Below are positions 2,312 through 15,330 of a stretch of 32,013 nucleotides of DNA, in pieces. A program made the translations under genes and the position numbers. The stretch covers positions 1 to 32,013 of the forward strand of contig JAHLWH010000138.1 in assembly GCA_019058015.1 (NCBI GenBank), in the 5' to 3' direction. Under the pieces are notes generated by a model, which searched no databases, was not told the DNA's origin, and saw only the letters and a program-made list of their open reading frames with translations. Numbering within the stretch: position 1 is the stretch's first letter; every line of letters starts with the position of its first letter. The stretch is from Promethearchaeota archaeon (GTDB lineage: Archaea > Asgardarchaeota > Lokiarchaeia > Sigyniarchaeales > SOKP01).

Positions 2312-4240
2312 ATGTCTGATGTTCGCATTGGTGTATTTGTTTGTAGATGAGGTATAAATATTGCGGGGGTTGTCGATGTTTCAAAAACCGTCGAAGAGCT
2401 GGATAAAGAAGAAAATGTCTGGGCTTGGGAGTACTTAAATATATGCACGGACACAGGAGCAGATTTTATTACTGAAAAGATAGAAGAAAAAAATCTTGAA
2501 AGGGTTGTTGTAGCGGCTTGCACTCCAAGAACACATCAACCAGTATTTCACAGTATCCTAAAAGATGCAGGCTTGCCTCCACGAATGCTTGAATTTGTAA
2601 ATATCAGAGAGCATTGTAGTTTTGTCCATATGTCAGAACCAGAAGAAGCAACTGTAAAGGCAATTGAATTAATCAAAGCAGGTATCGCGAGAGCAAATTT
2701 ATTAGAAGCTGTGCCAACCAAAATAGTTCCCGTAAAGAAATCTGCTTTAGTTGTTGGTGGCGGAATAGCGGGTTTGACAGCAGCTATTGATTTAGGAAAT
2801 GAAGGCTTTAAAGTCACTCTAGTAGAAAAAAAATCTACTACGGGTGGAAGAATGGCTCAATTGGATCGAACTTTCCCAACAGATGATTGTAGTATCTGAA
2901 TCTTGGGTCCTAAAATGTTAGAAGCAAATCGTCATCCTAATATTACTATAATGTCTCTAGCTGAAATAAAAGAGATAACAGGATATATTGGAAACTTCGA
3001 AGTTAAGGTACAGAAAAATCCAAGATATGTGTATGAAGAAACTTGCACGGGTTGTGGTCAGTGTACGGATGTTTGTCCAATATACATTCCAAACTATTTC
3101 GATGAAAATTTTTCAGCTAGAAAGTGTATTGACATTGCATTTGCACAAGCAGTTCCAGCAATTTACGACCTTGATAAAGAGTGGTGCGTAGAATGCTATG
3201 CTTGTGTTGATTCGTGTGATGTTCATTGTATTGATTTAAGTCAAGAACCCGAGATTGTTGAACTCGAAGTTGGAACGATTATAATCGCAACCGGTTGGGA
3301 CCTATATCAAGGAGATGAATATGGATACGGAAAATATGAAAATGTAGTAACACAAATTCAACTTGAAAGGATTCTCTCTCCAAATGGTCCAACTCTTGGC
3401 CATTTAAAGCGTCCATCCGATGGAAAGAGACCAAAAAACATATTATTTATTAATTGTGTTGGCTCAAGAAACGAGGAGCATCCGTGGTGCAGTAATGTAT
3501 GCTGTCTTTTATCAGTAAAAAATTCAAAACTAATAAAGTCAGAATATCCAGATGCAAATATTGTGGTTTCATACATAGATATGAGATGTGCAGGGAAAAT
3601 GTATGAAGAATATTATAAGCGTTCCAGAGAAGCCGGAATTATGTATATAAATGGGAAAGTAGGAAAATTAATTGAAGATCCAAAAACTAAGAATCTTGTC
3701 GCTAGTATGGAATCAATTGGGACTGGAGGTATTGTAGAATTTGAAGCTGATTTAGTAGTTCTATCTTCAGCATCATTACCTTCAGCTGGAACTGATGAGA
3801 TTGCACAAGTTCTAAAATTGGAGAAAAGCCCTAGTGGTTTCTTAAAGGAATTTCATCCAAGACTTGATCCCATCGAAACTAAGTCGCCTGGAATCTATAT
3901 TTGTGGTTCTTGCCAAGGGCAAAAAGCGATCGATGCAACTGTCAATCATGCAAGAGGGGCAGCACAAGCTGCTTCAATTCCGATGAACAAAGGAGAATTT
4001 GTTATTGAATTAATTCGGGCTGATCCGATTGATGAAAGGTGTGCAAAATGCTATATGTGTATAGAAACATGCCCTTATAGCGCCATCTCGGTTAATGAAG
4101 CTGGACAAATTGAAGTTGATCTTATAAGTTGTAGAGGATGCGGTATGTGTGCTGCAACTTGTCCATCAATCGCAATTGAGCTTCGTTATTACCGAGATTA
4201 TCAATTCAATGCAGTAATTGACTCATTATTCGAAGCATAA
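2312..4240 (+). CDS. hdrA: Heterodisulfide reductase subunit A, selenoprotein with two Sec (U13, U196), 642 aa
   Basis: One frame from ATG 2312: MSDVRIGVFVCR-TGA(2348-2350)-GINIAGVVDV...VVAACTPRTH...VGGGIAG...RTFPTDDCSI-TGA(2897-2899)-ILGPKM... to TAA 4238-4240. Both TGAs sit at conserved HdrA Cys positions (CxC; DCSxC). This joins track ORFs 2573-2899 and 2903-4240. Confidence 0.95.
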
Positions 4241-4259
4241 ACAAAAGGAGGAAAAAATC

Positions 4260-4688
4260 ATGAGTTCTGATATAAAGATTGCATCCTTTATGTGTTGGAA
4301 ATGAGGGTATGGCTCTGGTGATATGGCTGGTACTATTCGCGCACAATATCCAATAAGTATTAGACCGATATTAGTTCCTTGCGCTGGAAGAGTTGGTTCA
4401 GAGCTAGTTATGAGAACAATCGGTCGTGGTGCCGATGGAGTTCTAATTGTTGGATGATATCCAGGTGAATGTGATTTCGAAACAGGGAATAAATTTGCAT
4501 GGAGAGAAGTTGAATATCTTAATGAAGTTTTAGATACTATAGGTTTTTCTAATAAAAGAGTTAAAATGGCATTCTGCACTTCTGCAGAAGGACAAAAATT
4601 TCAAAGAGTAGCAACCGAATTTGACAAAGAAATTCGAAAACTAGGAAAAAACCCCCTCAAAAACAAAAATTCCGATAAGAATGAATAA
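4260..4688 (+). CDS. vhuD: MvhD/VhuD/FlpD [2Fe-2S] hydrogenase delta subunit, selenoprotein with two Sec (U15, U66), 142 aa
   Basis: Missed by the ORF track. SD GGAGG, ATG 4260: MSSDIKIASFMCWK-TGA(4302-4304)-GYGSGDMAG...VPCAGRV...GADGVLIVG-TGA(4455-4457)-YPGECDF...SAEG...TAA. The TGAs occupy the CxxC and GCxxGEC cysteines of MvhD. Confidence 0.95.
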
Positions 4689-4739
4689 TGTGAAAAAATC
4701 CTGGTCGCATTATGACTACCTATTGCAATGGGATCGGAA
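4670..4739 (+). promoter_or_regulatory. Eukaryote-like SECIS element for vhuD (and probably hdrA)
   Basis: ATGA(4681-84)-a-TAATGTGA-AAAAA-tcctgg-TCGCATTA-t-GA(4714-15)-c. This gives an AUGA/GA core, an 8-bp stem and an A-rich apical loop. Basal helix TTCCGAT(4670-76)/ATCGGAA(4733-39) and an extra hairpin CCTAT-tgca-ATGGG. Folded by eye. Confidence 0.85.
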
Positions 4740-4801
4740 ATAAGTAATTTTTTTAAAAAAAATACCAAAAAAAAGGTTAATAATTGTAAAATAGTATAGA
4801 A

Positions 4802-5953: not shown

Positions 5954-5993
5954 AAATATAATTTTTTATTAAATTCTTACTTAATTTTTTTGA

Positions 5994-6062
5994 ATAATTA
6001 AAGGGCGCAACCCTTTTGTCAATCTTTCACTAACATTTTTTGAAAGATATCATCCAAATTAT
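5994..6062 (-). promoter_or_regulatory. Orphan SECIS-like element (copy 1 of a direct repeat)
   Basis: Minus strand ATGA-t-ATCTTTCA-AAAAA-tgttag-TGAAAGAT-t-GA-c with a perfect 8-bp stem, then hairpin AAAGGG-ttgcg-CCCTTT and basal ATAATT/AATTAT. Positions 6001-6060 match 8521-8580 at 56/60 nt. Confidence 0.75.
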
Positions 6063-6199
6063 ATAGGTTTTTTCAGACTCTCAAAATAATTAGTAAAATT
6101 TCCAATCGCTTTTAAAATAAAAATAGTTATGAGATATAAATCGAAGAATTTAAATTCATATTTACTTTTTTATATCCTATTAATTTATTGGGATAAGAA

Positions 6200-6529
6200 A
6201 TGTCAATTATATTATCCAAAAAATCTCAAGAATTCATAAAAAAAAATAAGATCTCTAATTTATTCATCGATATTAATTTTATTGAAGAAAAATGCGTTCA
6301 AATTTATGAACCAAAAATAAAAATAATAGAAAGAACAGATTTAAACGAATATAATAATTTTGAAAGTATATCTTCTGAAAAATTGACTATTTTTTTATCA
6401 GAAAAATTTATCCAAATTTATGGACAATTGACTGAATATTATTTAGATTTTGCTGGCTTTCTTAAAAAAGAGTTGATTATTGAAAATGCTGAACCAATTA
6501 TAAAAAACCTTTGCAAAATTGGAAAATAA
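6200..6529 (+). CDS. Hypothetical protein, possibly a HesB-like / CC-Se-motif family member (single Cys)
   Basis: 109 aa. The layout MSIILSKKSQEFIKK...KCVQIYEPKI...LTIFLS...LDFAGFLKKELII resembles that family by eye only. Confidence 0.45.
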   Translation: MSIILSKKSQEFIKKNKISNLFIDINFIEEKCVQIYEPKIKIIERTDLNEYNNFESISSEKLTIFLSEKFIQIYGQLTEYYLDFAGFLKKELIIENAEPIIKNLCKIGK

Positions 6530-6570
6530 AGTAATTTAAAAAAATATTTACATGGGGATTTCCATAAAAT

Positions 6571-7242
6571 ATGCCAAAATATAATCCAAAAGAAGCAAGG
6601 GATACTAAAAGAAGAAGACAAAAAAGAATCGCAACTCAAAAAAGGAAAAGAAATTTTAGGAGTTTTACTCATTATGCCCCAATAATTGGGGTTATTGTTA
6701 TGTTGTCGATTGTTGTAATATCTATTTTTTATTTAGTTGGAAACGAGAATGAACTGGCGGCTGGAGGAGTTGATGATGACAGTGGAAATAATAATGATAA
6801 TCAACAAAATGAGATTCCTAATTTGTATCAAACAGATTTAACTTTTACGACGATTGAAGGGGATACAATTAAATTAGCAGATCATAAAGGAAAAGTTATT
6901 ATTTTATTTTTCTTTGGCTTAAATTGTTACCCTTGCGATGTTGAAGCTAGTATTTTAATCGATATCGATAATTATTATTCAAATAGTGAGGCATTAATTA
7001 TTCCTATTGCTACTGACCCCACATATTCATATAACGATTTAAATAATTGGAAAAATAATTATAACCCAAGTTGGGATATCGTTCGTGATGATATTTCTCA
7101 CTCATATAGTAGCTATTTCAGCATTGCGTACCTCCCTACAGTAATAATTTTGGACAAAAATGGTAATATTGAAAAAAAAATAATTGGTCCCGATCAAGGA
7201 AGTTATGATAATATAAAAGAGGAAATTGATACATTATTATAA
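6571..7242 (+). CDS. Membrane-anchored TlpA/ResA-like thioredoxin
   Basis: Basic N-terminus, one TM helix, GKVIILFFFGLNCYPC (CxxC) and LPTVIILDKNG (cis-Pro loop). Confidence 0.85.
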   Translation: MPKYNPKEARDTKRRRQKRIATQKRKRNFRSFTHYAPIIGVIVMLSIVVISIFYLVGNENELAAGGVDDDSGNNNDNQQNEIPNLYQTDLTFTTIEGDTIKLADHKGKVIILFFFGLNCYPCDVEASILIDIDNYYSNSEALIIPIATDPTYSYNDLNNWKNNYNPSWDIVRDDISHSYSSYFSIAYLPTVIILDKNGNIEKKIIGPDQGSYDNIKEEIDTLL

Positions 7243-7288
7243 TTAAAGAATATTTTTAACGTATATGAAAAAAGGAGAGATTTAAATA

Positions 7289-8053
7289 ATGGCTGATATA
7301 ATTTTATTTTTATTGGCAATAAGTGGTGGAATAGTTTCTTTTTTAACGCCATGTAATCTAGCAATATTACCATCGTTTATTGCTTATCTTGGAAACCAGG
7401 CAAATTCAACCAAAAAAAGCACTCTAATGAGTTTTTTCTTTTCATTAGGGTTTTGTTGTATGTTTTCGATAATCGCTGCCTTGTTTATAGTTATTTCTGG
7501 TTTTATTAGATTTACATTTTGGTTAAAATTATTCTCAGGTATTGTAATAATATGTTTGGCAATCTATCTCTTCACTGCAAAACAATTTACACGAAAAACT
7601 CCCTTTTATAAATCATCTCAAAAATCTAATATCAAAAATAAGAATTTGAATTCCTCTAAAATAAGTGAAAATACTGAAGAATTTAATATTTTAGAATTAG
7701 ATGATGAAACAATGAAATATGTGGGTTATAGTGGAGCATTTATTCTTGGATTTTCTCTGGGTTCAACTTGGATTGGATGTATTACACCTATTTATTTGGC
7801 AATCGTTACAATTGCTTCGAATCAAGAAAGTTTTATAGTAGGTATGTTTTTATTTTTCTTTTACGCGTTAGGCATGATGATTCCATATTTAATAATAGGT
7901 GCTTCAATAGGAAAAATAAAACAAAGATTTTTTATTAAACTAATTAAGATTGGTTCAAAAATTCAAAAAATATTTACAATTATCTTAATATATATTGGAT
8001 TTGAATTAATTTTATCGGCTTTTGGTATTCCTGGGTTGTTACCTTTTATTTAA
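7289..8053 (+). CDS. ccdA: CcdA/DsbD-type transmembrane electron transporter
   Basis: GIVSFLTPCNLAILP and GFSLGSTWIGCITP motifs, about 6 TM segments, adjacent to a TlpA gene. Confidence 0.88.
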   Translation: MADIILFLLAISGGIVSFLTPCNLAILPSFIAYLGNQANSTKKSTLMSFFFSLGFCCMFSIIAALFIVISGFIRFTFWLKLFSGIVIICLAIYLFTAKQFTRKTPFYKSSQKSNIKNKNLNSSKISENTEEFNILELDDETMKYVGYSGAFILGFSLGSTWIGCITPIYLAIVTIASNQESFIVGMFLFFFYALGMMIPYLIIGASIGKIKQRFFIKLIKIGSKIQKIFTIILIYIGFELILSAFGIPGLLPFI

Positions 8054-8130
8054 ATTTCATCATCACTATTTTATCGGGACTAAATGAAAACTGTTTGTAG
8101 ATTAAATCATTTTATGGAATTTTATATTTT

Positions 8131-8151
8131 GGGAATAACCGGGAATAACCG
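8131..8151. repeat. 10-bp tandem duplication GGGAATAACC x2
   Basis: gggaataacc gggaataacc g is read directly from the sequence. Confidence 0.7.
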
Positions 8152-8509
8152 TCATAATTACTTTAGATTTTCGTATAGCGTTAAACTCTTAAGAGTTCTC
8201 AATATTATACCCTATTTAATAATTAACCCTCAACAATTTTGAACCTAAGTCAAGTTTAAATCTAAACGATCCACAATCATTCAAATATCATTCTTAATTA
8301 TTCAATGTGAAAAAAGAGAAATTTGAAAAGATTTTGAATTATAATTTAAAAAAATTTACAGAAAAGGAAATAATAAGGTAAGATTAAGTAAAACTGATGT
8401 AAGTAGATGATTTAATTTTTCATAAAAATGAAATTTTTTAATAAAACAAGACATCTTTAAAAATAAATTAATTTTATCGTCAAATAACTGATTTTTTAAA
8501 ATAATACTC

Positions 8510-8582
8510 TAAATTTTAAAGAGGGGGCAACCCTTTTGTCAATCTTGCACTAACATTTTTTGAAAGATATCATACAAATTTA
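8510..8582 (-). promoter_or_regulatory. SECIS element downstream of the UGA-UGA gene (copy 2)
   Basis: Minus strand ATGA(8573-70)-t-ATCTTTCA-AAAAA-tgttag-TGCAAGAT-t-GA-c with 7/8 pairs, hairpin AGGG-ttgcc-CCCT and basal TAAATTT/AAATTTA. Spacing is identical to the vhuD SECIS. Confidence 0.8.
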
Positions 8583-8584
8583 AT

Positions 8585-9040
8585 CTATTTCTTTAGTTTT
8601 TTAAAGTAATGGGCAAAATATTCATTTTCTTTTCCGAATTTTTTCATAATGATCTTTTTGAGTGAACCCATATCTAATCGTTGCTTGACCTTTTCTCATC
8701 AACATCCAGCATCAGGATGTAGCTTAATCTCACTATCTGGATACAAATTGAAATCCAAATTATCCCGAAGAGGCATAAACTGTCTATTAGGTCCATAAGC
8801 ATTCACAGCGCAGTCGTCGTATATCTCATTTTTTTGTGGATTCCAGAATAATTGTAGATAAGTTTTAATATAGCCCTCATATAAAGGGAATGGAGAATTT
8901 TCTGGATTTTCTAAAACATGTTTATCCACAATAGCTAATGCTTCAATAAATTTAGCGTCGTCCTTTACTAATACCTCATATTTTTTACCTTCATTGAGCC
9001 CTTTTACAGGTGCAAAAATTGTAAATTCAATTTTTTTAAT
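8585..9040 (-). CDS. Candidate novel selenoprotein with a Cys-Sec-Sec motif (about 151 aa), possibly beta-grasp-like N-terminal domain
   Basis: The frame is open from ATT 9040 (after SD-like GGTGGTG): IKKIEFTIFAPVKG...KLHPDAGC-TGA(8701-8699)-TGA(8698-8696)-EKVKQRLDMGSLKKIIMKKFGKENEYFAHYFKKLKK-TAG(8587-8585). The SECIS core follows 11 nt later. The start codon is uncertain. Confidence 0.7.
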
Positions 9041-9135
9041 TTTTCACCACCATTTTTTTTTAATAAATTAATTTAATGACAAAAAAGTTATTTAAAATTT
9101 AAGATTTAAAGTCTGAAAGTGTGTGTGTTTTTCAT

Positions 9136-10284
9136 TTATCTTTTTAGGTTATTTATATTTGCTGATGGCTTCTTCATATCTTTCCCAAAAACCATGGCTT
9201 CTTCATATCCTTCCCAAAAACCACGCCTTCCTAAAAATCTACCTAAATATACCATAGACAGCATCACAGGAACTTCCCAGAATAACCCCATTGTAGTACC
9301 TAACGCCGCAATTGAACCAACTCCATACATCGCAACAGCAACGGCAATAGCAATCTCAAAATGGCTCGAAGAGCCAATAATTATTGTAATTATTGCATAA
9401 CGATAGCTCAATTTTAACAGTTTGGTGATTAATATATTGTAACCAACAACAATAGCAAATCCAACTAAGAGGGGGATAGTAATTAATAACAATAAATCTG
9501 GGTTTCCTACAAGGACTTCGCCGTTTAATGAAAATAATACAACTAAAGTCATCAGCAATGCAATTATTGCTACTGTCGATACAGCGGGTTTATACTTAGT
9601 GTTAAACCACACCTCCCCTTTTGTTTTAGTTAAAGCTTTCTTAGTTATTATCCCTAACAATAGTGGTAGCCCAATAAATACAGCTAAAGAAATCAATAAG
9701 GTCATCGGATCTAAAGGAATTTTTTTCTCTAAAGTAATATTTGCTAGAAATACTAGGAGAGTTACAACAGGTATATACAAAAAAATAATAGTGACCGTAT
9801 TTAAGCTAGTTGTAACTACATTTTGTTCTTGATTTCCTTTTGCCATCCAACCCCATACTAATACCATAGCAGTACATGGACTACTGCTAAGTAAAAGAAC
9901 AGCTAAAACGAGTTGTTCATTTACTCTTAGGAATAAGATTGCCATTGCAGCACCCACTAAAGGAGCTACAATCCAATTGGATAATAACGTTAATATTATT
10001 GGTTTGGGATTTTTTCCCAATTTTTTCAGCTCAGATACTTGGAGATTTAACATTGCTGGATACATCATAAGAAAAAGGCAGATACCAATAGGTATAGAAA
10101 TCCCCGCAATTTGCCAAGAATCAATCGTCTCACCTATTCCAGGAACGAACTGCGATAGTAAGATCCCTAATAACATGCATAATGCGATCCAAATAGGAAG
10201 TAATTTCTCGAAAAAACTGATCCCTTTAGGTTTTTCTTTATTACTTTCTACTTCCGCCACAAGTCCCGCCTCAATTTCTGTCAA
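9136..10284 (-). CDS. acr3: Acr3-family arsenite efflux transporter
   Basis: FFEKLLPIWI, LFLMMYPAM, NWIVAP, SPCTAMVLVW, SSHFEIAIAVA and GLFWEVPVML. Confidence 0.93.
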   Translation of the reverse strand: MTEIEAGLVAEVESNKEKPKGISFFEKLLPIWIALCMLLGILLSQFVPGIGETIDSWQIAGISIPIGICLFLMMYPAMLNLQVSELKKLGKNPKPIILTLLSNWIVAPLVGAAMAILFLRVNEQLVLAVLLLSSSPCTAMVLVWGWMAKGNQEQNVVTTSLNTVTIIFLYIPVVTLLVFLANITLEKKIPLDPMTLLISLAVFIGLPLLLGIITKKALTKTKGEVWFNTKYKPAVSTVAIIALLMTLVVLFSLNGEVLVGNPDLLLLITIPLLVGFAIVVGYNILITKLLKLSYRYAIITIIIGSSSHFEIAIAVAVAMYGVGSIAALGTTMGLFWEVPVMLSMVYLGRFLGRRGFWEGYEEAMVFGKDMKKPSANINNLKR

Positions 10285-10419: not shown

Positions 10420-10770
10420 ATGGAAAAAAAAACAATTGAAGAAATTAAAAAGTTAATTGAATGTATTGGTCTTAATGTAGATGTAAATGAATATATTAAA
10501 GAATTAAAGAAAAACAAAGATAAAATTTTATCTAATACTGACTTTAAAAAGATGGTTAATTTTCATAAAGCGCTTGGACATAGGTCTAGGTATTTAATTT
10601 ATAATTTGATAAAGAAAAAAAAAATGTGCATATGTGAGTTAAATGTGATTATAGACTTAGCCCAACCAACAATTTCACATCATGTGAAAATTTTAGAACA
10701 AGCAGATTTGATTGAAGGAATAAAAAATGGTAAATTTACTCATTATCAAATTATAAAGGAAATTAATTAG
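10420..10770 (+). CDS. arsR: ArsR/SmtB-family regulator
   Basis: KALGHRSRYLI...MCICEL...AQPTISHHVKILEQADLI, divergent from acr3. Confidence 0.9.
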   Translation: MEKKTIEEIKKLIECIGLNVDVNEYIKELKKNKDKILSNTDFKKMVNFHKALGHRSRYLIYNLIKKKKMCICELNVIIDLAQPTISHHVKILEQADLIEGIKNGKFTHYQIIKEIN

Positions 10771-10824: not shown

Positions 10825-11292
10825 CTAGCAATTAATATTTTTTTCTCGTAATTTATCCAAGATATAATTCGAAATTTTTTCAACTTCTTCCTGATTCACA
10901 TCGTTTGCCTTAGGGATTTTTTGAAAAGCGTAAGGATCATTTAAATCTAAATCTTGTTTAGGAACGAATTGTTGAAGGTTAATTACTAAATCGGGTTTTA
11001 TATCAAGAGCTTTTAGGATCTGAACCATACATGATGTTCTACAACCATCAATTACTATTATATAATTTGAAAATAATCGTTGTTTAGTCATTTCAAAAAG
11101 ATTTTCTTTCTTAAGTAAATAATTTCTTAAAAAAAAAGTTGAGCAAAAAAATTCACTAAAATTTGAGATTGAATCATTAACATCTAAGTTTAATGCAATT
11201 TTGCGTGCCAATTCCCCATTATATTCAGATCCTGAGCAGGGTATTAAGATAATACTTTTTTCAGGTGTTTTCATTTCTGTCATTTGTATCAT
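10825..11292 (-). CDS. DGC-domain putative zinc-binding protein
   Basis: IILIPCSG...FFCS...VIDGCRTSC. Confidence 0.75.
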   Translation of the reverse strand: MIQMTEMKTPEKSIILIPCSGSEYNGELARKIALNLDVNDSISNFSEFFCSTFFLRNYLLKKENLFEMTKQRLFSNYIIVIDGCRTSCMVQILKALDIKPDLVINLQQFVPKQDLDLNDPYAFQKIPKANDVNQEEVEKISNYILDKLREKNINC

Positions 11293-11304: not shown

Positions 11305-11589
11305 CTATATTATGCCTTTTTCTTTCAAAAGTTCAGGCAATTTTTGTTTGAATAGAAATGGAGATGTAAAAATTACTTTTCCCTCAACAACTACGCTATT
11401 ACCGCGCAAATTTAATTTACGAGCTTCTTCAGAATCTAAATTTTTAGTTTGAAATTTAATTTTTTTTTTATAATCCTGAAAAGCCGAAAAAACAGAATTC
11501 ATAAATCTTTCCCATATACACGCGCATGTATTTAATGGCACATAAATATCGACTTTAAGTTTATGATCTACATCATTATCCTTTGACAT
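11305..11589 (-). CDS. Small thioredoxin-like / ArsD-like protein with a CxC motif
   Basis: KVDIYVPLNTCAC...NSVVVEGKVI. The fold assignment is by eye. Confidence 0.5.
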   Translation of the reverse strand: MSKDNDVDHKLKVDIYVPLNTCACIWERFMNSVFSAFQDYKKKIKFQTKNLDSEEARKLNLRGNSVVVEGKVIFTSPFLFKQKLPELLKEKGII

Positions 11590-11602
11590 AATACCACCCT
11601 AC

Positions 11603-11923
11603 TTAAATTTCAGCTTGTATTTCTACAATTTTTTTAAATTTTTTATTCCTTTTTATCAAATTATCGATAGTTGCTAACAATTTGAATATTTGAGGATCTT
11701 TAATTCTATAAAGCACTTTCACGCCTTCTTTTCTTCCAACGATTAAGTCAGCATTCATCAATTTTTTTAAATGCCTAGAAAGCGTAGATTGGGACTTTTC
11801 GAACACTTTCTCCAAGTCACAAGCGCACAATTCCTCTCCATGTCTAAGAAGGCTTAGAATTTCGAGACGAGATACATCAGACAGGGCGTTTAATAACTTT
11901 AATCTTAAATTTTGAAGATCCAC
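11603..11923 (-). CDS. arsR: ArsR/SmtB-family regulator (ELCACDL As(III)-type site)
   Basis: ALSDVSRLEIL...ELCACDL...SQSTLSRHLKKL...RKEG. Confidence 0.9.
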   Translation of the reverse strand: MDLQNLRLKLLNALSDVSRLEILSLLRHGEELCACDLEKVFEKSQSTLSRHLKKLMNADLIVGRKEGVKVLYRIKDPQIFKLLATIDNLIKRNKKFKKIVEIQAEI

Positions 11924-12518: not shown

Positions 12519-12825
12519 AGGATACGATGCTGATAAAGAAACTTTTATGAGCGTTCCCAGGAAAAAAATACCATGGTGGCCTACGATAGATTACGAAAAG
12601 TGCGATTTTTGCATGGAATGCGATAAATTCTGTCCGCATAATGTATACGCAAAAACTAACGATGATAATAAAAAATTAATTGTAAAAAATCCTTATAATT
12701 GCGTCGTATTTTGTCGCGTATGTGCAAAAGCGTGTGCTCCAAACGCGTTAAAATTTCCGGATAAGAGAAAGATTACGAAATTAATTAAAAAATTGAGGTC
12801 AGAACAAAAAGGAGAATCACAGTGA
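12511..12825 (+). CDS. 2x[4Fe-4S] ferredoxin
   Basis: CDFCMECDKFCP and CVVFCRVCAKACA. ATG 12511 follows GGTGA (track start 12502). Confidence 0.85.
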   Translation: MGEGYDADKETFMSVPRKKIPWWPTIDYEKCDFCMECDKFCPHNVYAKTNDDNKKLIVKNPYNCVVFCRVCAKACAPNALKFPDKRKITKLIKKLRSEQKGESQ

Positions 12826-13718
12826 CAAACTATAAGCTATGTATAATACCATGTAATGGATTAGATAAATCATTAGGGATAATTGCGCGAACTGTTGCCT
12901 TAAAAACCATCGAAAAAGAACCAAAAATAGAATTAATTTGCCCCGTTTTGTTAAACAATGGGGAGAAAAAATACGAAGAAATCTTAAAATCTTCTAAAAT
13001 TGTTGTAGTTGATGGTTGTATGACAGGATGTGCCACCAAATTAATAGAAGAAAGAAATCTAAAGATATTTAAAAAAGTATTCATCCCCGAAATGTCTAAA
13101 AAATTTAAATTAAAACCTGGAAAAAATTTAATCTTGACGGAGGAGGGAATTAACTTAGCTAAAACGATTGCTACTGAATTAATTGAATCATTAGATCGTT
13201 CTGATGACGAGATAACTATTGAATATAAAGAGATAGAAGATATTGACTATTTTGATATAACTGTTGATAAATTCTATTTTCGAGTGCCGAAAAGTGGATT
13301 TAATTTTAACGAAAACGATTGCTGGATAAAACCAGAGGGAGATTTAGGTTTAATTGGTATCACAGATTATTTACAGAACAGCGCCAGCGATATCATGTTC
13401 GTGGAATTACCCGAAATTGGTGGGAAAATTGAACAATTTGATGATGTTGGAAGTTTTGAATCGGTAAAAACTGTTTTACAATTGATTTCACCTGTGTCTG
13501 GAGAGATTGTATCTATAAACAAACTATTAGAGAAACAGCCAGAACTCTTAAACCAAGATCCTTACGGAAAAGGATGGTTTGCTGAAATAAAATTAGCAAA
13601 TTTCGAAGAAGATAAGGAACTTTTAATGGACTGTTCAGAATATTTTGAATATATGAAAAATAAAATTATGAAAGAAAGTGAGCATTTAAAAAAAATGAAA
13701 AGTGAGAAAAATGACTAA
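12822..13718 (+). CDS. DGC-domain / glycine cleavage H (lipoyl carrier) fusion protein
   Basis: N-terminal IIPCNG...LICP...VVDGCMTGC. C-terminal GITDYLQ...FVELP...GSFESVKTV (lipoyl-Lys)...SPVSGEI...LNQDPYGKGW. Confidence 0.88.
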   Translation: MTNYKLCIIPCNGLDKSLGIIARTVALKTIEKEPKIELICPVLLNNGEKKYEEILKSSKIVVVDGCMTGCATKLIEERNLKIFKKVFIPEMSKKFKLKPGKNLILTEEGINLAKTIATELIESLDRSDDEITIEYKEIEDIDYFDITVDKFYFRVPKSGFNFNENDCWIKPEGDLGLIGITDYLQNSASDIMFVELPEIGGKIEQFDDVGSFESVKTVLQLISPVSGEIVSINKLLEKQPELLNQDPYGKGWFAEIKLANFEEDKELLMDCSEYFEYMKNKIMKESEHLKKMKSEKND

Positions 13719-14127
13719 AAAAAAAGTATTCATTATCCCTTGTAGCGGAATAGGCAAGGTTTTTGGTAGTATTGGCAGAGAAACCGCATATATCGTAGCA
13801 AATGAGTTATCAAGAGAAAAAGCTGCATTGGAATGTCTCCCTTTAATAGTGAAAGGGAAAAGCGAAGTTATTGAAGCGTTAAAAGAGAATAAGGTAATTA
13901 CGATTGATGGATGCCCTTTAAAGTGTTCTTATAATAATTTAATGGAGAAAGTGGGAAAGGTTGATTCACAATTCATGACTACAAATGTAGTTAAGGAAAA
14001 TCGGGACTTGAAACCTGAACCAAAAATTATACCAATAGGTGAAAACACTAAAAAATTATCCCAAAAATTAGCAGAACAAGTTGCAAAAGAAGTGGATAGA
14101 TTACTTGAAGAAGAGGGAGTGGAATAG
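13711..14127 (+). CDS. DGC-domain putative zinc-binding protein
   Basis: FIIPCSG...LECL...TIDGCPLKC. ATG 13711 overlaps the upstream gene end. Confidence 0.85.
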   Translation: MTKKKVFIIPCSGIGKVFGSIGRETAYIVANELSREKAALECLPLIVKGKSEVIEALKENKVITIDGCPLKCSYNNLMEKVGKVDSQFMTTNVVKENRDLKPEPKIIPIGENTKKLSQKLAEQVAKEVDRLLEEEGVE

Positions 14128-14131
14128 TCAA

Positions 14132-14551
14132 ATGAAGAAGAAGGTGGGAATTATTGCATGTAGTGGGGAAAATTTATTGGGGGGCACTTTAAGCCGTGCA
14201 GCAGCAAGAATTGTAGTTGAAAAATTACGCCCTAATAATACTATTATATTATGTCAGCCTTTATTCGCAGCTGGTGGGTTAGAAAGGCATGGTGGACAAG
14301 ATGAGCGAGATTTTGCTAAAAATCACCCAACTATTACTATAGAAGGTTGTAAAGAAGAATGCTCAAAAATTGCGGTTGAGCGATATAGCGGACCTGTTGC
14401 AGCAACCATAAGAGTTGACGAGATTATGGAAGCTCATTTCGAACTAAATCCTGAATCTCGGGAAGATTTAGGAGAAAACGGGATGAAATTAGCAGAGATA
14501 GTCGCTGAAGAGATTGCGAAGAAGGTTGACGAATATTTTCGGAGAGAATAA
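14132..14551 (+). CDS. DGC-domain putative zinc-binding protein
   Basis: GIIACSG...ILCQ...TIEGCKEEC, starting at ATG 14132. Confidence 0.85.
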   Translation: MKKKVGIIACSGENLLGGTLSRAAARIVVEKLRPNNTIILCQPLFAAGGLERHGGQDERDFAKNHPTITIEGCKEECSKIAVERYSGPVAATIRVDEIMEAHFELNPESREDLGENGMKLAEIVAEEIAKKVDEYFRRE

Positions 14552-14610: not shown

Positions 14611-15330
14611 GTGATTAAAAGAATAAATGGTTTGAAAATTGGTATTATATCTGATGGAAAATACGGAGAAAGGGCTTATGAGAATTTTAGACAAATTTTT
14701 GCAACCGAATGGATTCTTGTTCCCGATATTCCATCAACAGTAATGCTTGATGAGGAAATTGAACTGGACATTCCCGACTGCGATCTTTACATTTCTTATG
14801 TAAGACATCCAGATATGATACTTCAGCTAGCAGAGCTTCAGAAATCTTTGATTTTAGGAATCACGCCTGGAATTGGATTATATCATCAAGCAAAACGGAT
14901 TAATCCTAAAGTTATTAGCCCTCGCACGATGTGTTCATTAGAACCAAACACTGGTATCCCAGAAGTGGATGAATTTGCGAAATATTTTGGAAGACCCATT
15001 TTTAATATAGAATCGAATTCCCAAGGAAATATAACTGATGTTTTCGTTATAAGGTCATCTCCTTGCGGTTCTTCTCAAGCTGGAGCAGATTTTTTTAAAA
15101 ATAAAAAGCTAAGCGTTCAGAATTTACAAGATCTCGCCCTAAGCGTGTGTCACGAATGCAGGGCACCAAGGTTCGGGCACACTTGTGACAAAGAAGTCTC
15201 TGGAATAATTCACATGTTATCGTTCGTAAGTAATATTAAACTTGACGATAATTCGGAGTTAAGTGAAGACTTGAAAATATTTATCAAAGATATTAAAATT
15301 GAATATCAAAAGCGTGCAAAAATCGAATAA
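14611..15330 (+). CDS. DUF166-family protein
   Basis: GKYGERA...HPD...MCSLE...EFAKYFGRP...VIRSSPCGS...CRAPR...IH pattern. Confidence 0.7.
   Translation: MIKRINGLKIGIISDGKYGERAYENFRQIFATEWILVPDIPSTVMLDEEIELDIPDCDLYISYVRHPDMILQLAELQKSLILGITPGIGLYHQAKRINPKVISPRTMCSLEPNTGIPEVDEFAKYFGRPIFNIESNSQGNITDVFVIRSSPCGSSQAGADFFKNKKLSVQNLQDLALSVCHECRAPRFGHTCDKEVSGIIHMLSFVSNIKLDDNSELSEDLKIFIKDIKIEYQKRAKIE

Follow-up and report, generated by a model that had tools for sequence, protein, structure and literature searches.

Two adjacent selenocysteines on a predicted beta-grasp domain: a selenoprotein family of Lokiarchaeia with a probable link to arsenic handling

We analysed a 32,013-nt stretch of DNA from a Promethearchaeota archaeon of the class Lokiarchaeia (contig JAHLWH010000138.1), hereafter called the window, in which an initial annotation made from the letters alone had proposed a hidden selenoprotein gene behind the arsenite efflux gene acr3. 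All window coordinates are positions in this stretch, and the gene (8585-9040) lies on its minus strand. The results indicate that it very probably belongs to a real selenoprotein family in which two directly adjacent UGA codons are read as selenocysteine (Sec). This Sec-Sec reading is very well supported because the TGA-TGA pair is conserved, the tail behind it is coding, a covarying selenocysteine insertion sequence (SECIS) element follows, the genome holds the Sec machinery and TGA otherwise serves as a stop. As the best explanation of the whole, we favour, with confidence a little above even, a twin-Sec selenoprotein of beta-grasp fold that acts as an arsenic carrier.

The frame at the UGA pair reads ...HPDAGC-TGA-TGA and continues through 36 sense codons to the true stop codon TAG (8585-8587); this arrangement, together with a hairpin 11 nt further on, had been described by the initial annotation and was found exactly so in the window sequence. 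The codons of Cys113, Sec114 and Sec115 (8696-8704) comprise TGT at 8704-8702, a first TGA at 8701-8699, which is the stop of the table-11 open reading frame (ORF) 8699-8929, and a second TGA at 8698-8696 as the immediately next codon. The conserved C-terminal tail of 36 residues (8588-8695; EKVKQRLDMGSLKKIIMKKFGKENEYFAHYFKKLKK) contains helices in the predicted structure, and its motif in the homologue alignment is RLD.G.(F/L)K..I.KK(F/Y)GK..E.F.HYF. Upstream of the GTG at 8929, where the table-11 frame begins, the frame stays open for the 37 codons noted earlier, to an ATT at 9040-9038. Beyond it lie a single AAA codon (9043-9041) and an in-frame TGA (9046-9044), and no in-frame ATG, GTG or TTG occurs between 9043 and the GTG at 8929. 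We place the start at this non-canonical ATT (9038-9040), which falls in the aligned start column of the homologues and is preceded by a Shine-Dalgarno-like GGTGGTGA (9044-9051) 3 nt ahead of the start codon. The start column of 40 homologues holds ATT in 20, ATA in 8, ATG in 7, ATC in 1, TTG in 1 and other codons in 3, and the homologues with ATG read MKTI.F... from there. Most of the 40 carry a GGTGA(T)/GGAGG motif ~2-10 bases ahead of this column, and in several an in-frame stop stands between that motif and the codon at the start column. The full coding sequence, with an AUU start, two Sec and a TAG stop, encodes 151 aa and is conserved over its full length in 40 homologues; the product of ~151 aa with C113-U114-U115 that had been proposed therefore stands, since readthrough frame, tail and SECIS are all conserved. 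The AUU start and the UGA-UGA pair lead standard tools to mis-call the gene at both ends.

Across the family, the start is mostly AUU or AUA (28/40) behind a strong Shine-Dalgarno motif. A crude and noisy genome-wide count of ATT/ATA behind GGTGA, comprising 143 configurations, gave 14 ATA and 9 ATT versus 5 TTA, 4 TAT and 3 AAT, which hints that such starts may occur in other genes of the genome too. We also weighed, and discarded, a frameshift starting at the ATG at 9053, which is out of frame: the homologue of genome G145, though 93% identical, lacks this ATG, and the ATT/ATA column is conserved.

The readthrough product served as query against 400 genomes of the phylum, in a search that reads through stops and counts them. 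Matches were obtained in 142 genomes, including 118 of the 134 genomes of the window's own taxonomic family, and extended to other families of the same order (1/1, 8/14 and 4/4 genomes) and of the same class (3/3, 2/2 and 2/2 genomes). Outside the class only three weak matches appeared, and the two inspected were short and had other stops. Among the matches listed, each covers query residues ~5-154 and holds two or three TGA; 37 further matches lie beyond these. Forty genes were extracted from 37 loci and aligned, and all 40 hold adjacent TGA-TGA in one column, down to 23-35% identity. Cys precedes the Sec pair in 31 of them (...PD[ASPV]GC-UU-E[KQ]V...), and members from other families of the class, 23-35% identical, retain TPDAGC-UU together with the tail motif RL...F...L...FG....Y. 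The region behind the pair behaves as coding sequence: no stop occurs among 990 in-frame tail codons (33 genes x 30 codons), compared with 82 and 99 in the other two frames, and variability by codon position (0.43/0.36/0.54) is highest at the third position, a pattern shared by the 20 codons ahead of the Sec pair (0.45/0.44/0.55). Where the window's tail has Met (LDMG), homologues have Ile, Phe, Tyr or Met, and since this column is not conserved the tail has no start codon of its own.

A profile search against 1.84 billion representatives returned 90 proteins, of which 20 were fetched. Several of these are non-Sec relatives of ~130 aa, the two named ones coming from Bathyarchaeia metagenome-assembled genomes (MAGs; e.g. 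P0168, P0150), and they carry a shorter acidic/helical tail, ..GGC(I/S/T)(T/S)(E/D)(W/F)EEP..Y..F.KA. Within the Sec family, one gene has a third Sec (SSSUGUU; L007:2055-2507, minus strand); together with protein P0102 it represents a paralogous branch with three Sec within five residues, SSS-U-G-U-U-GG. In L007 the three-Sec copy stands in tandem with a Cys-Sec-Sec copy, and two different paralogues lie side by side in L007, L013, L020, L046-L048, L055 and L056.

The SECIS element of the gene (8539-8573, minus strand) was identified by pattern scan, by homologues and by covariance model. It starts exactly 11 nt past the TAG stop and consists of AUGA, a nine-position stem (UAUCUUUCA / UGCAAGAUU, 7/9 standard pairs), the 11-nt loop AAAAAUGUUAG and GA. 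In PMC4989117, the lokiSECIS is defined by five features: AUGA, a stem of 9 bp, an 11-nt loop with mostly A in its first five positions and G, usually after A, in its last, a GA that follows the stem, and a location just behind the stop codon. The element at 8573-8539 shows all five. A strict hairpin pattern found three elements in the window, compared with a mean of 0.005 in 200 shuffles. Among the homologous genes, 39/40 carry a SECIS, starting -1 to +24 nt from the stop, and in several of them a TGA stop is at the same time the UGA of the AUGA core. In an alignment of 35 elements, 91.4% of cells were paired versus 45-55% in slid controls, and changes on both sides were seen in 13/14 pairs, including those of a 5-bp second hairpin; none of 500 shuffles reached the observed values. 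This extra 3' hairpin (8521-8535, minus strand; AAGGG / loop UUGCC / CCCUC in the model's register), detected by covariance, directly follows GA-C and shows two-sided changes in 4/5 pairs with 89% of cells paired; a like hairpin also stands behind the genome's other SECIS matches.

We then built a covariance model from 31 SECIS elements with the window's genus left out. It gave three significant sites in the window, namely the gene's element (8507-8579; 66.9 bits, E 2e-14), an orphan copy (5987-6059; 88 bits, E 1e-19) and the vhuD element (4675-4758; 35.6 bits, E 1e-6), and the next best match had E ~0.1. Both the gene's element and the vhuD element match the strict pattern and the model, in line with the likeness to the vhuD hairpin that the initial annotation had noted. 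The comparator SECIS (4681-4715, plus strand; pattern scan) lies behind the selenoprotein pair hdrA (2312-4240) and vhuD (4218-4688), which have two in-frame TGA each; vhuD matches PF02662 (3.9e-39). In front of the genome's other SECIS matches, two more VhuD-like genes and one VhuU-like gene are clear. Rfam at gathering thresholds gave no match over the whole window; its models evidently do not match Asgard SECIS elements.

Both of the Sec-free readings of the locus are hard to reconcile with these results. One holds that the gene simply stops at Gly-Cys with a double stop, as the table-11 calls have it, and that what follows belongs either to a small gene in its own right or to a conserved RNA. 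However, the tail is in frame with the upstream domain in 40/40 genes, lacks a conserved start codon, is conserved in a protein-like manner down to ~25% identity and is followed by a lineage-specific SECIS in all genes but one, and the non-Sec relatives continue with sense codons through the same columns into a homologous tail; we regard this reading as very improbable. The other holds that this organism has given UGA a new meaning, such as Trp, so that the residues are not selenocysteine. It could draw on public family entries with Trp-Trp at the site and on the 19 complete long ORFs of the window, which stop at TAA in 18 cases, at TAG in one and never at TGA. Genome-wide, however, TGA is the stop of 188/1411 (13%) open frames of at least 300 codons, the Trp codon of the selenoprotein gene itself is TGG, and several homologues use TGA as the true stop after the tail. 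The ORFs with in-frame TGA identified in the window are hdrA, vhuD and the selenoprotein gene, no whole-window scan for others having been made. The genome contains tRNA-SeC (ARAGORN) and SepSecS (388.5 bits, above the cut-off). A reassignment of UGA is the least credible of the readings, with next to no likelihood.

The readthrough product and its N-terminal part matched no Pfam and no NCBIfam family at E up to 10. An AlphaFold model computed from the 40-sequence alignment had a mean predicted local distance difference test score (pLDDT) of 92.4 and a predicted template modelling score (pTM) of 0.89, with strands at residues 2-8, 19-25, 77-82 and 103-109 and helices at 31-44, 61-65, 115-118, 124-135 and 143-146. 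In residues 111-120, which hold Cys-Sec-Sec, the mean pLDDT falls to 74. In Foldseek against the PDB, the best match was Haloferax volcanii SAMP1 (4hro/3po0; probability 1.0, E 1.6e-3, template modelling score 0.64 on the target), followed by Urm1, HVO_2177 and a MoaD. VIA-align, which is independent of Foldseek, placed CysO (4n6e_B; Z 7.1, 84 residues aligned) and SAMP1 (4hro_A; Z 7.1, 85 residues aligned, 20% identity) jointly at the top, with MoaD-related proteins, Methanosarcina acetivorans SAMP1 and Urm1 further down. Residues 1-112 (8705-9040, minus strand) are on this basis assigned to a beta-grasp (MoaD/SAMP/CysO-like) domain, and a beta-grasp fold of the selenoprotein appears highly likely from the model; what had been a guess about a beta-grasp/MoaD look has thereby gained substance. 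Because the structural alignments stop at model residues 111-116, Cys-Sec-Sec would sit where the carriers end in Gly-Gly.

The surroundings of the gene point to arsenic. In the window, acr3 (9136-10284, minus strand; TIGR00832, 290.1 bits, cut-off 282.8; Pfam SBF) is co-oriented with the selenoprotein gene and lies 95 nt upstream of it, in keeping with the co-orientation claimed at the outset, and ars genes recur around the homologues. Divergent from acr3 is an arsR-family regulator (10420-10770, plus strand; PF01022 HTH_5, E 6.8e-10), followed by genes for a DGC-domain protein (10825-11292, minus strand; PF08859, E 4e-11), a 94-aa C-x-C protein (11305-11589, minus strand; no Pfam match) and a second arsR-family regulator (11603-11923, minus strand; PF01022, E 2.2e-15). 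A homologue of the 94-aa C-x-C protein stands directly upstream of the selenoprotein gene in 18/37 loci (1.5-kb flanks), and in L009 and L025 an arsenite methyltransferase (NF008823, 357.6 bits, above the cut-off) has the C-x-C protein as its C-terminal domain.

For neighbour genes, we sampled 18 genera with 20 stretches reaching at most 8 kb to either side. ArsR-like genes were present in 13/20 stretches, Acr3 and the C-x-C protein in 9/20 each, an HgcB-like ferredoxin and a YdjM-family membrane protein in 5/20 each, an HgcA-like corrinoid protein in 4/20, ArsM in 3/20 and ArsC in 2/20. The operon of L054 has the order arsR | acr3-arsM-hgcA-like-hgcB-like-CxC-selenoprotein; L048 has the same order plus a second selenoprotein copy, and L057 and L058 have it with ArsM not detected. 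In L061, which belongs to another family of the order, the selenoprotein gene again stands beside arsR and acr3. By our own estimate, made with no computed control, a random gene would have acr3 within 16 kb in less than ~1% of cases (1-2 acr3 per ~4 Mb genome), and the related genomes that enter this linkage estimate are not independent. Because ars genes recur around homologues across genera, we place the family in arsenic (metalloid) handling; judged from this gene neighbourhood, it probably belongs to such a pathway.

Several features of these neighbours were observed in addition. The C-x-C protein, free-standing or fused to the ArsM C-terminus (L009:2010-3134 and L025:1999-3114), has an invariant C-x-C-x-W motif, ..VPL(D/N)(A/T/S)C(A/E)C.W... 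Its match to TsoX, a selenoprotein family of NCBIfam, is weak and below the cut-off (E 7e-4), Thioredoxin_3 comes up as an Atlas lead with a score of only 0.88, and a PDB sequence search with its profile returned no match at E up to 10. HgcA-like genes (NF040863, 121 bits, cut-off 275) and HgcB-like genes (NF040864, below the cut-off) occur inside Lokiarchaeia acr3-arsM operons (L048, L054, L057 and L058; also L016:3-782 and L006:2105-2683), which suggests a corrinoid/ferredoxin pair that may act on arsenic rather than mercury. Four DGC-domain proteins are clustered in the window (10825-11292, minus strand; 12822-14551 and 14611-15330, plus strand), one of which also carries a fused glycine-cleavage H-protein domain, and a small ferredoxin and a DUF166 protein adjoin its ars genes.

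On the other side of the gene, the orphan SECIS with its hairpin (5987-6059, minus strand) is a better-preserved duplicate without a gene ahead of it, seen by both pattern scan and covariance model. SECIS plus hairpin form a direct repeat (5987-6059 and 8507-8579) that flanks ~2.46 kb (6062-8522) containing a 109-aa ORF, a TlpA-like redoxin and a DsbD/CcdA membrane protein. In same-genus L004 and L005, a selenoprotein gene occupies the position of the orphan SECIS and directly abuts an FrhB-like gene; for this reason, the 6062-8522 cassette looks like an insertion that duplicated the SECIS.

We propose the following course of events. Translation would start at the AUU, 3 nt after the Shine-Dalgarno motif, and the adjacent UGA codons would be decoded as Sec114-Sec115, directed by the Loki-type SECIS 11 nt past the TAG. 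The flexible end of the beta-grasp domain would present Cys-Sec-Sec in place of Gly-Gly-COOH, and the conserved helical tail would then hold this end. The vicinal selenols, with Cys113 where present, may bind As(III) or methylated As(III) as a covalent Se/S adduct, and the bound arsenic might be passed to or from Acr3, ArsM, the HgcAB-like pair and the small C-x-C protein. The protein would then be a selenium-based counterpart of arsenic metallochaperones on a carrier-protein scaffold; the arsenic binding, the hand-over and the carrier-arm analogy are inferences, as is the arsenite chaperone or reductase role suggested by the initial annotation. A role as carrier or chaperone by direct binding rather than as a redox relay is plausible though slightly short of an even chance. 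The fuller picture, in which the MoaD/ubiquitin fold of Lokiarchaeia bears, instead of the Gly-Gly thiocarboxylate, a vicinal diselenol that shuttles arsenic, possibly in the form of toxic methyl-arsenic intermediates, between an ArsM and HgcAB-like methylation machinery and Acr3, is speculative and rather doubtful. If true, it would mean a new arsenic detoxification pathway built on Se-As chemistry, with a methylation machinery that depends on S-adenosylmethionine and corrinoid.

A number of observations weigh against parts of this interpretation. Cys-Cys at the Sec columns, the usual mark by which a selenoprotein family is recognised, was found in none of 33 proteins from profile searches, and the non-Sec relatives retain the Cys with Ile/Ser/Thr and Thr/Ser at the Sec columns (..PEGGC-IT/IS/ST/TT-EWEEP..). 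The initial annotation had looked to homologues for TGA-TGA or Cys codons followed by a conserved tail and a SECIS; the twin TGA, the coding tail and the SECIS are indeed kept, but no Cys codons appear at the Sec columns. Its C-U-U site likewise held only in part, for in a sister type (8/40 genes; ...LIVHAD-UU-ADNM...) Asp replaces the Cys before Sec-Sec. Because these eight members lack the preceding Cys, a three-ligand C-U-U site is not universal in the family, and the Sec pair is. The gene-attached SECIS has an internal U-C mismatch and scores 66.9 bits versus 88 bits for the orphan copy, and its second hairpin is weaker than that of the orphan copy. The AUU start rests on the alignment and is to be taken as probable. 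The complete same-genus genome G148 (L040, 100% complete) keeps only a 27-residue remnant with extra stops beside the FrhB-like gene, so the gene is dispensable; the remnant is a recent loss in a close relative. The fold scores are moderate (Z 7.1; Foldseek E 1.6e-3), with both methods agreeing. As to the arsenic link, none of Acr3, ArsR, ArsM and ArsC was found in 8/20 stretches, most of the distant members among them, and four of these eight stretches end early at contig ends. As locus queries, P0168 found no relative and P0150 one Bathyarchaeial locus; this single locus inspected has no ars genes, its neighbours being an actin-fold ATPase-like gene and housekeeping genes.

Two other functions were weighed against arsenic binding. 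The chief rival is a redox relay: the Cys-Sec-Sec arm might alternate between the selenol and the selenenylsulfide/diselenide state, much as the Gly-Cys-Sec-Gly arm does in thioredoxin reductase, and, with the small thioredoxin-like C-x-C protein, either maintain reduced cysteines in ArsM, ArsC or the HgcB-like ferredoxin or itself reduce As(V)/MAs(V). Such a role would suit the adjacent chalcogen residues on a lower-confidence segment of the model (pLDDT 74, residues 111-120), the commonest neighbour being a conserved C-x-C protein with a Thioredoxin_3-like lead, the presence of LMW-phosphatase-type (low-molecular-weight) ArsC in 6/37 loci (1.5-kb flanks) and the TlpA-like redoxin and DsbD/CcdA membrane protein directly downstream in the window, and most known selenoproteins are described as redox enzymes in the text of PMC13188914. 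The recurrent neighbours, however, include no reductase or NAD(P)H-binding partner, and the TlpA/CcdA pair is a recent insertion in the genus, not a conserved neighbour. Redox and binding roles can also coexist. We consider a redox relay possible, on balance unlikely.

The protein might instead handle selenium or sulfur, as a perselenide/persulfide carrier for selenophosphate synthetase or cofactor synthesis, with the ars neighbourhood being secondary. Its beta-grasp domain is closest to CysO, SAMP1, MoaD and Urm1, and the distant members and Bathyarchaeial relatives without ars neighbours would be in line with such a task; yet the protein has no free Gly-Gly end and no ThiS/MoaD Pfam match, neither an E1-like nor a SelD gene occurs among the recurrent neighbour clusters, where no dedicated E1 search was made, and the association with ars genes returns in different genera and, in one case (L061), in another family of the order. 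We judge this function improbable, and the arsenic carrier remains the reading that we prefer.

The family is present in public protein collections in a form that hides its nature. We obtained 96 matches there, from MAGs labelled Promethearchaeota, Lokiarchaeota, Hodarchaeota or Hermodarchaeota, and all the named ones are called 'hypothetical protein'. Most entries are 113-122 aa long and end ...GC, which is the truncation by gene callers that had been foreseen. In 9/13 fetched entries, the chain reads through with Trp-Trp at the Sec pair; in P0002-P0008, P0010, P0044, P0102, P0110 and P0126, Trp-Trp (or W-G-W-W) stands where the DNA has TGA. This Trp-Trp is an artefact of a caller choosing the TGA=Trp code on short AT-rich contigs, and it hides the selenoprotein.

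As to published families, the text of Huang 2024 (PMC11227280) describes a search of Asgard genomes with known selenoprotein families only and gives seven Asgard families (SelD, FrhA/VhuU, HdrA, FrhD/VhuD, Prx-like, AhpF-N-like and DsbA-like), and a 2026 review counts 11 archaeal selenoprotein families (PMC13188914). The twin-Sec family is absent from the main-text lists of PMC4989117, PMC11227280 and PMC13188914, whose supplementary tables might hold extra candidates, and the words 'ubiquitin' and 'MoaD' have no occurrence in the text of PMC13188914. Our literature searches brought up no report of beta-grasp selenoproteins or of adjacent, tandem or consecutive selenocysteines in a natural protein. 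The absence of Pfam and NCBIfam matches and, as far as these main texts go, of the family among published archaeal ones agrees with the initial statement that it matched no recognised archaeal selenoprotein family. We can be almost sure that this is a real Sec-Sec selenoprotein family, and we take it to be new; it combines the known Loki recoding signal and an unprecedented Sec-Sec arm with a known fold, the latter being assigned with good though lesser confidence. With 118/134 genomes of one Lokiarchaeial family, plus its sister families, it would rank among the commonest Asgard selenoproteins, and its chemistry would be that of two adjacent Sec on a carrier-protein fold within arsenic operons. 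Both of the consecutive Sec insertions would have to be driven by one 3' SECIS, which would make the gene a stringent natural test case for Loki/eukaryote-like recoding. The mis-called gene and its artefactual Trp-Trp are also a warning for annotation pipelines.

Compared with known systems, the selenoprotein shares its fold with the beta-grasp carriers SAMP1, CysO, MoaD, ThiS and Urm1, the structural matches covering model residues 1 to ~112-116. The carriers have a Gly-Gly arm at the end of the last strand, where the selenoprotein has its reactive residues, and its stretch L.PDS.I.L.PDAG presumably resembles the PP.GG end of these carriers. In contrast to them, it has no Gly-Gly-COOH, as the chain runs through Cys-Sec-Sec into a helical tail of 36 residues; it also has no Pfam ThiS/MoaD match and no E1-type partner among its recurrent neighbours, for which no dedicated search was made. 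Its chemistry would be on side chains, whereas that of the carriers is on a C-terminal thiocarboxylate. ArsD, likewise small and soluble, comes from ars operons, where its gene accompanies the efflux system, and its vicinal pairs of soft ligands bind As(III) and hand it to the pump; it has a thioredoxin fold with Cys pairs (Cys12-Cys13-Cys18) and serves the ArsA ATPase. The selenoprotein shares with ArsD its encoding in arsenic resistance operons, but is a beta-grasp protein with a Sec pair beside Acr3/ArsM and has no family match in Pfam/NCBIfam. In mammalian thioredoxin reductase, Gly-Cys-Sec-Gly are the last four residues of a large flavoenzyme. Both proteins have adjacent Cys-Sec after Gly on a flexible terminal arm, and arsenicals are known to target a site of this sort with high affinity; the selenoprotein, however, has a second Sec and a helical tail and stands alone with 151 aa.

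Among selenoproteins, the published Asgard ones (HdrA, VhuD, VhuU, PrxL and SelD) use the same recoding signal, a lokiSECIS or eSECIS-like type I element just after the stop, with AUGA, a stem of 9 bp, an A-rich loop of 11 nt that ends in AG, and GA, as given in the text of the Asgard studies, which also record several Sec per gene (PMC4989117; PMC11227280). The two Sec of the present family are directly adjacent, while those of PrxL form UxxU (PMC4989117; PMC11227280), and unlike the published Asgard selenoproteins the family shows no tie to hydrogenase or heterodisulfide metabolism. Bacterial selenoproteins linked to metals or metalloids, as tabulated in PMC13188914, include ArsM (UxxG), HgcA (CU), HgcB, MbdU (CU) and SaoC (CU). 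With them, Sec has precedents as a ligand or as an active residue in pathways for arsenic and mercury, and several show adjacent Cys-Sec, but in that tabulation none is beta-grasp or archaeal and none is given with two neighbouring Sec; judging by the motifs in the review's table, the UU of NCBIfam names like ArsM_AhpD_UU stands for two or more Sec located at different sites. The non-Sec relatives from Bathyarchaeia, finally, are true homologues by profile search and share with the selenoprotein both the domain and the conserved Cys.

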